Assembly (NCBI GenBank): GCA_037134875.1
Contig: JBAXLH010000004.1
Location: forward strand, 1,233-65,232
Length of the DNA: 64,000 nt
Direction: 5' to 3'
From: a bacterium
Lineage (GTDB): Bacteria > Patescibacteriota > Minisyncoccia > Phycocordibacterales > DATDWN01
Numbering within the stretch: position 1 is the first letter of the stretch; every line of letters begins with the position of its first letter. The notes beneath the pieces were generated by a model. The model was not told the DNA's origin. It saw nothing but the letters and a program-made list of their open reading frames with translations, and did no database searches. Shown one piece after another: positions 419 to 56,195 of the stretch. A program made the translations under genes and the position numbers.

Positions 419-527
419 GAATTTGACAGACTTGACCTTTTTGGAACATTGCGAGCGCGACGGCGCGAACACGAGGAATTTTCTAGCAAGAAAATATCCG
501 TTTCCAAAAAGGTAAGGCTGTAAAATT
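419..527 (+). repeat. palindromic repeat element, copy A (core ggaacattgcgagcgcgacggcgcgaacacgaggaattttctagcaagaaaatatccgtttcc)
   Basis: Same core as copies at 20521-20590 and 40015-40078. Flanks gaatttgacagacttgacc / ggtaaggctgtaaaattc form an imperfect long stem. Confidence 0.7.
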
Positions 528-542
528 CAAAAAAATAAAACA

Positions 543-686
543 ATGTCATTCACATACAATCCTAAAAAAAGAAAACGAGCAAAGGCACATGGTTTTTTGG
601 TACGAAGTAAAACAAAAACAGGCCGAAATACTCTTTTGAGACGACGACGAAAAGGTCGCAAAGCTATCACAACTGTTAAAAAATAA
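543..686 (+). CDS. rpmH: 50S ribosomal protein L34
   Basis: Translation [47 protein letters not shown]. It is below the 60-aa cutoff of the ORF track and is followed by rnpA. Confidence 0.9.
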
Positions 687-689
687 CCT

Positions 690-1028
690 ATGTTACCAAA
701 ACAGAGAAGAATTCAGAGGAAATTTTTCTCAGAGATTTTGAGTAAAGGTGCACGTTTTAATACAGAACACTTTCTAGTCTATATTCTCCAAACAGAGAAA
801 GAAAATCCTTCGCGGTTTTCTTTTTCTATTTCAAAAAAGGTTGCACAAAAAGCAGTCACCAGAAATCTATATCGTCGTCGCGGATATGCTATAATCTCTA
901 AGTATCTAGAAGACATAACAACAGGCTATAATCTCTTTTTTGTATATAAAAAAGGATCACTACCAGTTTCTTTTGTAGATCTGGAATCAGAAATTATATT
1001 ATTACTAAAAAAATCACACCTAATCTAA
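690..1028 (+). CDS. rnpA: ribonuclease P protein component
   Basis: 112 aa basic protein directly downstream of rpmH (conserved rpmH-rnpA-yidC synteny). Confidence 0.8.
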   Translation: MLPKQRRIQRKFFSEILSKGARFNTEHFLVYILQTEKENPSRFSFSISKKVAQKAVTRNLYRRRGYAIISKYLEDITTGYNLFFVYKKGSLPVSFVDLESEIILLLKKSHLI

Positions 1029-1033
1029 TTTTT

Positions 1034-1762
1034 ATGGGTTCACTCTTTCAAATTTTAATTTTTAAACCTTTTTATAATGGACTCGTATTTCTTATGGGCT
1101 CACTTCCCTTTTTTGATGCAGGGGTGATTATTATTATTTTTACAATAATTGTAAAAATAATTTTACTTCCTCTCTCAATCAAAGCAAGCAAAGCTCAAAT
1201 TGAAATGAAAAGTATTGAAAAAGATCTCAATAACATCAAAGAAAAATATAAAGATAACAAAGAAGAACAATCACGAAAAACAATTGAATTGTATAAAGAA
1301 AAAAACATAAATCCTTTTTCTGGATTTTTAATACTCATTATTCAATTACCAATTATTATTGGACTATATCAAGTTTTTCTCAAATCTGGCCTTCCAAAAA
1401 TAAATACAGCAATTCTCTACCCATTCATTATGGCTCCAGTGGCTATAAATATGATGTTTTTAAACATTATAAATATAGCTGACAAAAACATTATTCTTGC
1501 AATAATTGCAGGTATTACATCATATTTCCAAATAAGCTATGCAAGTAAAAATCAGCCACAGAATACAGGAACAGGAACTCAAAATGAAATTGCGCGGGCT
1601 ATGACAATGCAAATGAAATATTTCTTCCCTGTGTTGGTGATATTTATTTCATACAGCATTTCAAGTGCGCTTTCACTCTACTGGATTACCAGTAACCTAT
1701 TTGCTGTTGCACAGGAAATTTATATAAAGAAAAAATACCATCAAGCTGTCTCGGTGGTATAA
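1034..1762 (+). CDS. yidC: membrane protein insertase YidC/Oxa1 family (short form)
   Basis: 242 aa multi-TM protein at the conserved position after rnpA. Confidence 0.65.
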   Translation: MGSLFQILIFKPFYNGLVFLMGSLPFFDAGVIIIIFTIIVKIILLPLSIKASKAQIEMKSIEKDLNNIKEKYKDNKEEQSRKTIELYKEKNINPFSGFLILIIQLPIIIGLYQVFLKSGLPKINTAILYPFIMAPVAINMMFLNIINIADKNIILAIIAGITSYFQISYASKNQPQNTGTGTQNEIARAMTMQMKYFFPVLVIFISYSISSALSLYWITSNLFAVAQEIYIKKKYHQAVSVV

Positions 1763-1772
1763 TTTCAAAAAA

Positions 1773-53557: not shown

Positions 53558-53621
53558 TGTCCGATCTGTCTAGTTTCGGATAAAGCGTACTGTTCTTTGA
53601 AAATTCACACAAAGGAAACAA

Positions 53622-54224
53622 ATGATGGAAAATCGAGTTGTGTTTTTGGATAGACCCAAGACTCGGGTATATCTCAGTCCAGTAGAAAAAGGGGACTTAC
53701 CTTTTTTTACTAAGACAATGAATAATGAGGAAATTACTCGTTTCTTGCTTGGTCATCATCCGACAACAATGGAAGATGAACAAGTGTGGTATGACAGAGT
53801 TAGTAAACAACGAGAAAGTGATCGTATTTGTTCGATTATTCTTAAAGAAACACATGAAGTTATTGGTGTTATTGGTATTCACAGAATTAACTGGATAGAT
53901 AGAACTGCTGGTACTGGTGCATTCATTGGTAGGGAGGATTTGTTGGGAAAAGGATTGGGTACAGAAGCAAAAATGCTCTGGCTTAAATACGCTTTTCTAA
54001 CACTTAATCTTCGTATGATTATTTCTCGCGCATATGCCTTCAATGGCAGAAGCATTCGTTATTCGGAGAAATGCGGTTACAAACAAATCGCAGTGTATCC
54101 TGATTTTATTTTCCGCGATGGAAAGTATCACGACATGGTGCACCTTATGGTTACCCGCGAAATGTGGGAACCGCTGTGGCACGAGTTCGAAGCAAAAATG
54201 AAAGGAGAAACGAATGAAAAGTGA
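53622..54224 (+). CDS. GNAT-family N-acetyltransferase (RimJ/RimL-like)
   Basis: GVIGIHRINWIDRTAGTGAFIGREDLLGKGLGTEA, an acetyl-CoA binding motif. Confidence 0.7.
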   Translation: MMENRVVFLDRPKTRVYLSPVEKGDLPFFTKTMNNEEITRFLLGHHPTTMEDEQVWYDRVSKQRESDRICSIILKETHEVIGVIGIHRINWIDRTAGTGAFIGREDLLGKGLGTEAKMLWLKYAFLTLNLRMIISRAYAFNGRSIRYSEKCGYKQIAVYPDFIFRDGKYHDMVHLMVTREMWEPLWHEFEAKMKGETNEK

Positions 54225-55998
54225 GAAACGAAATCCACTGTCGTATCTGTTTAGTAAGATCTGGGAGTTTTCGCAAGGAAACAGAAAAAATGTTGTCTTG
54301 TATTGGATTCTGTTTATTTTTGCCAATGTCATAAACACGGTTTTTCATCCGATTGTGATGGCAAAGATTATGGATGTTTTGCAAAAGGATGGTATTACCA
54401 AAAATAATATTTCCCTTTTGTATTTTCTTCTGGGACTTACCTTAGTAAACGATCTAGTTTTTTGGGCGTTTCATGGTCCAGCCAGAGTTATCGAAAGAGT
54501 AAATGCATTTAAAGCCAGAATGAATTACAAAAAATTCTTGCTTAGTGGAGTTATGAACCTTCCTTTGCCTTGGCATATCGATCATCACACAGGTGATACG
54601 ATAGACAAAGCAGAAAAAGGTACGACTGCGTTGTATTCTTTTTCCAAAGAATCTTTTGAAGTCATCTCTTCTTTTGTCCAGCTTATTGTTAGCTTTTGCA
54701 TGCTTGCGTATTTTGGTGTGGAAGCTATAACCATCGTTGTAGTAATGATGGCGATTGCGATATGGATTATTATCCGATTTGATCAGGTGCTCATCCCACA
54801 ATATGTAAGCTTGAATAAATCAGAAAATCAAATATCTCAAGGCATTATTGATTCCATTAGCAATATTGGAACAATCATTGTTTTGAGAGTTGAAAAGTAT
54901 GTCTTCGAGGCTTTGTCTCGCAAAATGGAAAAACCGCTCGGGCTCTTTTGTAAAAATGCGAAGGTAAACGAAGGCAAATGGTTTCTAACAAATCTTTGCT
55001 GTACGATAATGTCCATTTTGGTAATGGCATTATATTTCTGGAAGAAAATAGGTACAAACCCAGCTGTTCTTGTGGCCAGTACTTTTCTTTTGTTCAGATA
55101 TCTGGAAAAGATCAGCGAATTGTTTTTTAGATTTGTTGGGAGATATAGCGACATTGTCATTTACAAAACTAGAATTGCAAATTCCGAAGAGTTGTCAAAT
55201 GATTTTGTCACTGGAAGTTTTGCAAATCATGTTTTGCCAAAAGATTGGAAAAAGCTCGAAATCAAAAAACTAAATTTCTCCTACCACATCGAGGGCGACA
55301 GCGATTTACATCTGGAAGATGTGTCGCTTTCTGTCCTACGTGGTGAAAAAATTGTTTTTGTAGGAGAAACTGGTAGTGGCAAAACAACTATGCTCAAGGT
55401 GATGCGAGATTTGTATCAGCCAAAGAGTGTGGAACTTTCTGTCGATGGTCAGATTATTTCCGATGGTTTTGCTGGTATCGCCAGAGCGATTGCACTTGTT
55501 CCGCAAAAACCGGAAATATTTGCCACAACTATTTTGGAAAATATTACTGTTGGAGTGGACTACGAGATGGGTTTTGTCAGGCATTTTACTGATATGACTC
55601 ATTTTACAGAAGTCGCACTGAACCTTCCAAATGGTTTTGACTCTTCTGTAAAAGAAGATGGTTTGGACTTAAGTGGGGGACAACAGCAAAGGCTAGCACT
55701 TTCTCGGGGACTTTTGGCTTGTTACGATAAGGAAATTGTTCTTTTGGATGAGCCAACCTCTAGTCTGGATGCTATCACTGAAATTACTGTTTACCAAAAT
55801 ATTCTGAGAGAATTTAAGGAAAAAACTGTGATCTCAACTACTCACGGTCTACATCTTTTACCATTTTTTGATCGAATTTGCTTTTTTAGCAAGGGTCGAA
55901 TTTTGGCAACAGGTACTCTGGACGAACTTCTTACATCTTGTCCTGAATTTGTAAATTTGTGGAGTGCTACACAAAAAGCATCAACAGAAATTGTGTGA
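54214..55998 (+). CDS. ABC transporter, fused permease/ATP-binding protein (exporter type)
   Basis: N-terminal 6-TM domain; Walker A GETGSGKTT, signature LSGGQQQRLALSRGLL, Walker B VLLDEPTS. Confidence 0.85.
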   Translation: MKSEKRNPLSYLFSKIWEFSQGNRKNVVLYWILFIFANVINTVFHPIVMAKIMDVLQKDGITKNNISLLYFLLGLTLVNDLVFWAFHGPARVIERVNAFKARMNYKKFLLSGVMNLPLPWHIDHHTGDTIDKAEKGTTALYSFSKESFEVISSFVQLIVSFCMLAYFGVEAITIVVVMMAIAIWIIIRFDQVLIPQYVSLNKSENQISQGIIDSISNIGTIIVLRVEKYVFEALSRKMEKPLGLFCKNAKVNEGKWFLTNLCCTIMSILVMALYFWKKIGTNPAVLVASTFLLFRYLEKISELFFRFVGRYSDIVIYKTRIANSEELSNDFVTGSFANHVLPKDWKKLEIKKLNFSYHIEGDSDLHLEDVSLSVLRGEKIVFVGETGSGKTTMLKVMRDLYQPKSVELSVDGQIISDGFAGIARAIALVPQKPEIFATTILENITVGVDYEMGFVRHFTDMTHFTEVALNLPNGFDSSVKEDGLDLSGGQQQRLALSRGLLACYDKEIVLLDEPTSSLDAITEITVYQNILREFKEKTVISTTHGLHLLPFFDRICFFSKGRILATGTLDELLTSCPEFVNLWSATQKASTEIV

Positions 55999-56015
55999 AT
56001 TAAATCAAAAAATCC

Positions 56016-56057
56016 CGCTTCCAGAAATGGAAGGCGGGATTTTCTTTTGTTTGATGT
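56016..56057 (+). terminator. rho-independent terminator after ABC transporter gene
   Basis: aaaaaatcccgcttccagaaatggaaggcgggattttcttttg. Confidence 0.55.
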
Positions 56058-56064
56058 GGTTAGT

Positions 56065-56195
56065 TTTCATTTCAAAACTTGTCGAAAACATATTCTTTTT
56101 TGAGGCTTCGCAGGCGGGTAGCCGAGACTTGAGAAATTTGCCAGCAGGCAAATATTCGTACTCAAAAAAGGATATGTTGAGTAAAAGTTTTGAAA
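56065..56195 (+). repeat. palindromic repeat element, copy I
   Basis: Core ttgaggcttcgcaggcgggtagccgagacttgagaaatttgccagcaggcaaatattcgtactcaa aligns with copy C. Arms caaaacttgtcgaaaacatattcttttt / aaaaaaggatatgttgagtaaaagttttg. ORF 55964-56254 is its spurious translation. Confidence 0.65.

Follow-up and report, generated by a model that had tools for sequence, protein, structure and literature searches.

Rickettsia palindromic elements (RPE) are palindromic repeats of ~100-150 nt in the small genomes of host-dependent bacteria. They lie between genes and also in frame within genes; in the latter case the protein gains a peptide and is not destroyed. To our knowledge, RPEs are confined to Rickettsia and no transposase is associated with them. 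ERIC (IRU), Correia (CREE/NEMIS) and BOX elements are imperfect palindromes of 100-200 nt that occur in many copies and in either orientation in transcribed spacers; they are modular, form long and short variants via internal insertions at fixed points, and have a mobilising enzyme that is unknown or acts in trans. REP/REPIN sequences with their RAYT enzymes (IS200/IS605-like Y1 HUH) are hairpins behind gene ends that show compensated pairing and long persistence and follow the logic of a single-strand hairpin recognised by an enzyme encoded elsewhere. In integron attC sites the structure is kept while the sequence varies, and one strand folds with extrahelical bases.

The genomes of Patescibacteria, or candidate phyla radiation (CPR), are tiny, tightly packed and thought to be poor in repetitive DNA. 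The stretch analysed here, 64 kb of a Patescibacteria metagenome-assembled genome (MAG) and hereafter called the window, carries nine copies (A-I) of a hairpin repeat that resembles each of these systems in the traits just listed, the restriction to Rickettsia apart, and is similar in length to attC; its in-frame insertions affect UvrD, RecG, MnmA and PyrD. All nine copies reported in an earlier note on this DNA hold what was described, and both covariance models used below confirm that they form a real family. The likeness to RPE/ERIC/Correia-type elements proposed there also holds, in-frame insertion included. With some reserve, we lean towards reading the repeats as a non-autonomous mobile hairpin element family of Patescibacteria of the RPE/ERIC/REP-like kind.

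The window sequence matches contig CAZJNJ010000003.1 of MAG GCA_964547445.1 and is identical among independent assemblies from ENA, Logan and NCBI. Contigs elsewhere that carry window proteins are all 100% identical to the window. The nearest UvrD proteins to that of the window (68-69% identity) come from unlabelled read-run assemblies, and the nearest matches with a named source (66-68% identity) from Parcubacteria/Paceibacterota.

Each copy forms one long hairpin, in which a conserved three-way junction sits atop a long stem, P1. The elements measure ~75-230 nt (median ~118 nt), of which 77 nt make up the conserved core. The inner part of P1, about 9-11 bp, is semi-conserved, with a U-rich 5' side and an A-rich 3' side (typically UUUUUGGAG/CUCCAAAAA), and is followed outwards by 10-35 bp of copy-specific sequence. 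The left and right arms of a copy are reverse complements, as the earlier note had stated, and constitute the longest inverted repeats of the window (I1-I4, I7, I14 and I15). Its description of the arms as entirely different between copies went too far, given the semi-conserved inner 9-11 bp and an internal loop shared by copies C and I. This loop, 5'-GUCGARG / 5'-YGAGWAAG, recurs at a fixed distance in ~15 copies elsewhere, and its AGUA/GAA content recalls what we take to be the loop E / sarcin-ricin motif. At the junction, J1/2 reads (A)CUUCGCAAG or CAUUGCGAG. In P2, a short hairpin, 4 bp enclose a G-N-N-G loop; the conserved 3' bulge GA(G)AC follows, while P3 comprises 10 bp with an AGCA loop and an invariant bulged A in UAU, and GU forms J3/1. 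A long form keeps P1, J1/2, P3 and J3/1 and expands P2; the same build was found in three loci of other genomes (L096, L101 and L079).

Covariation supports every helix of the three-way junction. Within the window, double changes occur at 15 of the 25 pairs of P2, P3 and the closing stem. Across 99 distinct sequences, 93.7% of cells are paired and 24 of 25 pairs show double changes, values to be read with the caveats that the search pattern fixes part of P3, that the alignment was fitted to the model and that the sequences are mutually related. None of 500 shuffles reached the observed covariation, and sliding the partner by 1-3 columns lowered pairing to 45-60%. Substitutions in P2 and P3 are almost purely Watson-Crick, with ten G.U cells in all. 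The earlier claim that the internal stems covary while keeping their pairing is thus borne out by both sets. Mutual information revealed an extra pair across P2 between columns 21 and 126 (G-C in 44 sequences, A-U in 38), and therefore a short helix P2a (CAA/UUG). The module of J2/3 and P3 (ACNCGAGGAA-hairpin-UAUCCGU) is also joined to other 5' parts (L039 7330-7440, L036 600-720 and L044 7030-7140); the family is therefore a mosaic of modules, not one fixed unit.

Two covariance models were used: R1 was built from the six canonical window copies (A, B, C, D, F and I), and R2 from copies in other genomes only, which makes it independent of the window. R1 scored the six canonical copies at 79-98 bits, all on the + strand (reverse strands at most 16 bits), and R2 recovered the same six at 63-98 bits, in agreement with the shared layout that had been proposed for them. 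Beyond these, the R2 scan of the 64 kb gave no match other than E (37596-37786, full length, 26 bits, E=1e-4), H (17.8 bits, E=0.03) and one hairpin of G (14.7 bits). The window thus holds six short forms, one long form, one decayed E-like element that hosts F, and two type-2 members:

414 to 533, + strand: copy A, core 436-512; short form between dnaA and rpmH, just ahead of rpmH; R1 97.6 bits, R2 94.3 bits; arms I4; fold -44.7 kcal/mol, z=-7.0.
18620 to 18764, + strand: copy B, short form, core 18653-18732, in frame and antisense within uvrD/pcrA (open reading frame, ORF, 16922-19018, - strand); R1 79.9 bits, R2 63.4 bits; arms I15.
20486 to 20625, + strand: copy C, core 20517-20594; short form in the gap of a convergent gene pair, with the stop codon of the - strand ChlI/ComM-like gene 10 nt away; internal loop GUCGAAG/UGAGUAA; R1 96.6 bits, R2 98.3 bits; arms I2, 41 nt; fold z=-8.2.
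28646 to 28750, + strand: copy D, core 28660-28736; short form flanked by two - strand genes, of which the T2SSF gene has its stop codon (CTA at 28753-28755) 2 nt beyond the 3' end of D; R1 84.1 bits, R2 68.5 bits; arms I7.
37589 to 37793, + strand: copy E, long form, with P1, J1/2 (CAUUGCGCAGG), P3 with bulged A, and GU as in the short form; P2 enlarged to ~115 nt and containing a degenerate second set of junction motifs; 3' end 8 nt from the rpsO stop codon; arms I14 and I19; fold -84.4 kcal/mol, z=-8.2.
39966 to 40145, + strand: degenerate E-like element that hosts F, with the 5' module AAGACATTGCGCAGG...GAAACAAC and the 3' remnant ...GGTTGTTTT...TGTCTT, recognisable and decayed.
39990 to 40100, + strand: copy F, short form, core 40007-40083, nested at the P2 position of the E-like element; R1 97.6 bits, R2 95.5 bits; perfect arms of 28 bp, I3, 100% complementary.
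42140 to 42339, + strand: G, type-2 composite, GUCGGAGC-hairpin-GCGAGG... plus three further hairpins, one of these P3-like with the UAU bulge; between the tRNAs at 42031-42102 (+) and 42382-42452 (-), after a terminator-like hairpin; fold z=-7.0.
44630 to 44716, + strand: H, type 2, GCCGGAGC-hairpin-GCGAGGCGGGGUCGCGG...P3-like...UAUCCGUGACC, 40 nt after a tRNA gene; no closing stem; fold only z=-2.65.
56061 to 56204, + strand: copy I, core 56095-56170; short form; the final triplet of its 3' arm is the clpP stop codon (TTA on the + strand; clpP ORF 56202-56897); internal loop GUCGAAA/UGAGUAA; R1 78.9 bits, R2 72.8 bits; arms I1, 44 nt; fold z=-9.0.

The z-scores refer to dinucleotide shuffles, and the + strands of copies fold at z = -7 to -9.8. 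Copies occur about once per 7-10 kb. Over core and inner arm, copies A and F are 94.5% identical and differ at four positions, which amount to two compensatory swaps in P3; no relation exists between their outer arms. The 5' side of the element hosting F agrees with E at 39 of 52 E positions (86% mean column identity), so that the view of E as a longer composite whose 5' module recurs upstream of F stands, with F nested in a degenerate E-like element. G and H had been taken for composite or partial variants of the common layout near tRNA genes; the neighbourhood holds, G is a composite, and both belong to a distinct second type without closing stem rather than to the same layout. Relatives of H lie beside tRNA sequences in two loci of other genomes (L045 and L044).

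The family is spread over many CPR lineages and is not specific to one genome. A 33-nt degenerate pattern from J2/3 and P3 was run against 185,579 species genomes and returned at least 103 loci, from which the loci with L-numbers cited here were sampled; 100 of them were searched with R1. Among the matches listed, nearly all loci were labelled Patescibacteria, the labels including Taylorbacteria, Saccharibacteria, Paceibacterota, Nomurabacteria, Minisyncoccia, Adlerbacteria and Zambryskiibacteriota. With R1, 83 of the 100 loci yielded 94 full-length copies (46-94 bits), and six more gave partial variants. The 11 loci without a match, ten of them from non-CPR genomes (Rhodanobacter, Blautia, Thermosporothrix and others) and one from an 'uncultured bacterium', equal the number of chance pattern matches expected, and the 77-nt core was present in none of the non-CPR pattern matches. 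This search of related genomes, which had been suggested for the family, thus extended it well beyond the window; the earlier description fell short of the CPR-wide range, the in-frame insertions, the empty and filled sites and the fold of one strand.

No described family was recognised among the repeats. At gathering thresholds, Rfam 15, whose families include the hammerhead, twister, pistol, hatchet and HDV-like ribozymes, tRNA-like RNAs, 6S and HEARO/omega RNAs, returned only tRNAs over the whole window, and at E<=10 the region 37400-45000 (E, F, G and H) gave tRNAs and weak chance matches, none of them on the elements, in line with the view that the core matches no known family. In 18 related loci, the Rfam matches were to rRNA, tRNA and one group II fragment, all away from the copies. 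Neither plasmids nor phages matched in blastn searches, the pattern scan found no IMG/VR viral contig, and a protein search with a 42-aa peptide from an in-frame insert yielded no candidate. TIGR arrays and the tRNA group I introns of CPR are unrelated to these hairpins. A CPR repeat of this kind is undescribed in the searchable full-text literature, an absence that does not amount to proof of novelty. We regard the family as previously unrecorded and its kind as resembling known small palindromic repeats.

The hairpins have been gained as whole units, and the arms belong to the inserted DNA. The UvrD of the window has 698 aa compared with ~646 aa in its orthologues, and the extra 52 aa (156 nt) lie exactly at copy B, whose hairpin of 145 nt (18620-18764) forms the core of the insert; the reading frame stays open, with UvrD domains on both sides. 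A subfamily of eight copies from several genomes, three of them in one genome, carries the same G+C-rich arms (GCGGAGCGAAAGAGGUUGGCGGGAGG...) between unrelated flanks. These two observations establish the arms as element DNA. Further in-frame copies occur in RecG (three), in another site of UvrD, in MnmA and in PyrD, in both orientations, and give rise to recurrent insert peptides (ARTRGIFQQ(E/K)NIRA in sense, GYFSAEKFL.FAPSRS in antisense). Empty sites complement the picture: the dnaA-rpmH spacer of L024 lacks copy A, RuvC and YebC abut in L042 and are separated in L088 by 195 nt with a copy, and L067 lacks a copy present in L029. Hairpins have therefore been gained at spacers, often right behind stop codons, in frame within genes and inside an older P2; many copies end 0-10 nt from the stop codon of an opposite-strand gene, as C, D, E and I do in the window. 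Nesting is suggested elsewhere too, where junction motifs of the GCGAG...CGAGC type flank several copies. An intron or other spliced insertion was rejected, as all in-gene copies are open in frame and ten intergenic copies each lie between ORFs that are complete and distinct genes (e.g. groES-[copy]-groEL).

Only one strand of the element, the + strand, must fold, whatever the direction of host transcription. In an arm alignment whose scoring ignored the type of mismatch, + strand mismatches comprised 89 G.T/T.G against 24 A.C/C.A (p=6e-10) and 162 purine.purine against 19 pyrimidine.pyrimidine. The + strand was also stabler than its complement in 88 of 100 copies, by 5.6 kcal/mol on average. 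The mismatch asymmetry is alike in sense, antisense, convergent and divergent copies and recurs in copy B, which lies antisense inside uvrD; the usual deamination biases of transcription or replication would yield the opposite sign for the majority orientation. The polarity is therefore the element's own and not that of host mRNAs. RNA and single-stranded DNA (ssDNA) both tolerate G.U/G.T and G.A best, so that the mismatch spectrum fits either carrier.

Copies are kept for long times, with a nearly invariant unpaired head and with stems altered by compensated substitutions only. The orthologous filled sites compared lie in different genera. At the sites of L038 and L071 the element is 92-94% identical between flanks of 68-83% identity, and its stem differences are compensated. 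In L029 and L007 the head is almost identical and the arms are ~60% identical (counted by eye from the alignment); both sets of arms are fully paired, and pairing was kept through many double changes. One further site holds the long form in L079 and the short form in L095, the difference being an indel of 65 nt at the P2 tip. The selection on structure that the earlier note deduced from such compensatory variation is supported by the covariation. A self-correcting palindrome remains an alternative to it: during template switching in quasi-palindromes, one arm is copied from the other.

If these repeats form a family of mobile hairpins, a folded single strand of + polarity would be copied or moved by a structure-specific enzyme that acts in trans and is encoded elsewhere. 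The conserved head would serve as its recognition site, and the paired foot would set both ends side by side for cutting and joining. The carrier may be ssDNA, by analogy with attC and IS200/REP elements, or RNA; we hold the two to be roughly equally likely, each only tentatively. Like RPE, ERIC and Correia elements, the copies themselves are probably passengers with no or only a mild cost.

Several observations weigh against mobility as the explanation. Selfish copies that are dead on arrival should decay, and the kept copies point to in-place selection, gene conversion or a self-correcting palindrome. The purine-rich internal loops and the AGUA/GAA loop, a putative loop E motif, look RNA-like. 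No two copies within the window are identical, and recent activity in the host genome is therefore unsupported. The ends of 67 copies revealed neither a target-site duplication nor a conserved target motif; their flanks are merely G-poor with an A at -1 and +1. Relative to GC skew, 48 copies have their + strand on the C-rich strand and 24 on the other, which opposes the lagging-strand-template prediction for IS200/IS605-type elements; a confounding factor is gene orientation (46:26 for the antisense side of local genes), since skew and coding balance are correlated (r=0.74) and the two effects are inseparable. Finally, Pfam detected no transposase, HUH or reverse transcriptase domain in the called genes of the window and left XerD as the sole recombinase, as the earlier note had it.

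The strongest competing explanation, although an unlikely one, is a structured RNA that functions for the host. The + strand RNA would bind a conserved CPR protein or RNase with its head, the long duplex would act at gene ends to signal processing, stability or insulation, or would be the precursor of small duplex RNAs, and mobility would merely have spread the module. It would account for the compensated conservation in place at orthologous sites, for the G.U and purine.purine mismatches with a stabler + strand, for the loop-E-like AGUA/GAA internal loop recurring at a fixed distance, for the conservation of the long form in different lineages and for the frequent placement behind stop codons: on the 3' side, sampled copies face a gene end 52 times and a gene start 29 times, while the 5' side (36 vs 40) shows no preference. 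Transcription fits it poorly, however. Fold polarity is independent of the flanking genes (24 antisense and 20 sense copies), and the excess of copies antisense to local genes (46:26) runs against it. Sigma-70-like promoters are in no excess upstream of the + strand compared with the reverse strand, and no U-run follows the hairpin; at least 7 T within 12 nt after the hairpin were found in 9% of copies on the + strand and 17% on the reverse strand. The rare U-runs, together with stems that are A+U-rich over 25-45 bp, also ruled out an intrinsic terminator. In addition, the in-frame copies in the helicase, MnmA and PyrD genes, in both orientations, are hardly regulatory, and related genomes lack particular copies.

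A broader version, which we consider improbable, sees in the repeats CPR-wide, host-maintained, polarity-specific RNAs, in which the junction is a 'handle' on a locus-specific duplex of 25-45 bp, and which would also spread via RNA-based copying. It is tenable because of the in-place conservation, the compensated stems, the RNA-like loops and the strand-specific fold. If true, it would mean genome-wide programmable hairpin RNAs, i.e. precursors of small duplex or guide-like RNAs or scaffolds of ribonucleoproteins. Likenesses to hammerhead, K-turn and retron msr structures were weighed by eye, and no test bore them out.

Lower still we place a host site at the DNA level, a hairpin extruded on one strand (as ssDNA or cruciform) for priming, recombination or nucleoid organisation, as has been proposed for REP/BIME. 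A strand-specific fold independent of transcription and the almost purely Watson-Crick covariation of P2 and P3 agree with such a site, as do the spacing of about one copy per 7-10 kb and the single (+) orientation of all nine copies in a window that starts at dnaA-rpmH (dnaA start at 304, - strand). In other genomes, however, orientation switches within a few hundred bases to a few kb (L022, L080, L053, L011 and L057). The relation to GC skew is just 2:1 and confounded, and the skew of the window is flat for 40 kb and hence uninformative on the replichore. In-gene copies and empty orthologous sites also misfit a site that is required.

It is very unlikely that only the core of ~80 nt is mobile and lands in the loops of pre-existing palindromes, the arms being target DNA. 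Copy F does sit within the P2 stem-loop of an older E-like element and takes its outer arms from this host stem, which is true for F only; the GCGAG...CGAGC-type motifs flanking several copies elsewhere and the near-identical cores of A and F with their unrelated outer arms would also fit. The helicase gene, however, had no palindrome of 30 bp where the entire 145-nt hairpin of B now lies inside a 156-nt gain, and the RuvC/YebC junction of L042 has no spacer at all where L088 has a copy. One subfamily takes identical arms to unrelated sites, and the arms at orthologous sites diverge by compensated changes. At coarse resolution, insertions with arms that the empty allele lacks have already been seen. 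The possibility raised earlier that the arms are pre-existing terminators is contradicted by the insert in UvrD and by this same-arm subfamily.

Chance similarity or an assembly artefact, conceivable for a window that derives from a MAG, was rejected in view of E-values of 1e-15 to 1e-25 with R2, of the identical sequence in ENA, Logan and NCBI assemblies and of copies in dozens of independent MAGs.

Mobility in single-stranded form, the reading that we prefer, places the repeats near several known systems without equating them with any. They are at most an analogue of RPEs, and membership is unlikely given the Patescibacteria hosts; in contrast to RPEs, the family spans many lineages and has a conserved three-way-junction head, arms of free sequence and a demonstrated strand-specific fold. 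ERIC, Correia and BOX elements are limited to one genus or family, whereas the CPR repeats cross phylum-level groups; and where Correia-type elements share conserved terminal inverted repeats and duplicate a TA, the CPR repeats have variable termini and no visible duplication. REP sequences measure 20-40 nt, with a conserved GTAG-type 5' head and conserved arms; this architecture is the reverse of the conserved apex and free arms found here and ruled out a REP unit, and unlike REP/REPIN the repeats have no RAYT/TnpA in the window and no conserved tetranucleotide target. Likewise, in attC sites the apex varies while the foot keeps its R'' (RYYYAAC) and R' (GTTRRRY) boxes, and the sites lie in cassette arrays beside intI, whereas the feet of the CPR repeats are copy-specific and the copies are dispersed among housekeeping genes with no intI in the window; an attC assignment was ruled out by these copy-specific feet and by the missing intI. 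A miniature inverted-repeat transposable element (MITE) of a DDE transposase was excluded by the differing outer arms, the conserved centre and the lack of a duplication at 67 copy ends. For a MITE derived from IS200/IS605 (PATE), the lack of duplication is consistent, but a fixed flanking tetra- or pentanucleotide is missing. The conserved apex with a free foot, the strand-specific fold and the CPR-wide range together distinguish the family from RPE, ERIC/Correia/BOX, REP and attC.

Some further observations concern the surroundings of the copies. In the dnaA-rpmH spacer, the window (305-413) and L024 (~220-330) share a long identical block including AATATGTTAATAATATGTGTATAA between flanks of only ~71-81% identity; the block, which may represent the replication origin or promoters of dnaA/rpmH, contains TGTGTATAA, one mismatch from a DnaA box, and element A lies just downstream of the block. 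A perfect DnaA-box consensus, TTATCCACA, directly follows the 3' arm of F at 40106-40114, far from dnaA, and may be there by chance. Near the origin-proximal genes, at ~5654-9901 on the - strand, lies a cluster encoding PrgI, a TraC-like protein and a VirB4/TraG-P-loop protein, the type IV secretion system that has been reported as a typical trait of Patescibacteria, flanked by several large ORFs without Pfam match; a repeat copy stands beside the VirB4-like orthologue in L024 and not in the window. Directly upstream of F, an Exo_endo_phos (EEP) nuclease gene (39137-39934), the only nuclease-type gene adjoining a copy in the window, encodes a protein with a faint match to the endonuclease-reverse-transcriptase subfamily; an ordinary exonuclease III is its likeliest identity.

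Type-2 elements seem to be tied to tRNA genes in two unrelated genomes. In the window, the last 17 nt of the tRNA at 44520-44590 and its 11-nt trailer (GATTCTCGGCACCCCGACAATCAAAAAC; together 44574-44601) recur as a perfect 28-nt repeat at 44717-44744, after H, and a third, decayed copy lies at 44765-44781; CCGTGACC, the 3' end of the type-2 element, precedes each repeat. With ~90-130 nt between the repeats, the arrangement looks like an att-type duplication by integration at the T-loop region of a tRNA. In L045 (1030-1320; CAZQYV010000001.1, a Saccharibacteria-labelled MAG), a type-2 element and a hairpin lie between GCCAATGTAGCT and AGTTGGTAG, the two D-arm halves of a tRNA-like sequence, and a sequence starting with GTGCCAATGTAGCTCAGTTGGTAGAGC ~180 nt downstream resembles an intact tRNA 5' end. 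Rfam made no tRNA call at this latter site, the nearest calls being at 1541-1613 and 7516-7586.

A REPtron-like gene between inverted copies was sought in two loci and rejected, since the interval is a 16S rRNA gene in L011 and consists of housekeeping genes in L057. The rRNA gene of L011, from a Taylorbacteria MAG, is flanked by a + copy upstream (4209-4284) and a - copy downstream (7025-7101), and near its 3' end carries an insertion of ~430 nt (6249-6690) with a weak match to group II intron D1-D4. In many UvrD/PcrA proteins of CPR, two surface loops are the recurrent places of additional peptides (20-70 aa) that are unrelated to one another, in alignment columns 108-193 (orthologues P0028, P0031, P0042, P0044, P0064 and P0117) and 618-676 (P0030, P0038, P0042 and P0027). 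Some of these peptides are mirror-like in sequence (FENS...FVETNFKNF), which suggests that other palindromic families insert in frame at these permissive sites.

A structured repeat every ~7-10 kb that is common to Saccharibacteria- and Paceibacteria-labelled lineages is unexpected for CPR. In practice, such repeats add peptides to conserved proteins, break assemblies and can confuse gene calling, and alignments and structure predictions will show inserts of the ARTRGIFQQENIRA type as 'CPR-specific insertions'. Since it offers hundreds of diverse copies as well as empty and filled orthologous sites, the family is much better suited than RPE or ERIC for finding the long-sought mobilising machinery, and its conserved head offers a ready bait for the partner protein. 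With this family, the RPE phenomenon is met a second time, and independently, in reduced genomes.

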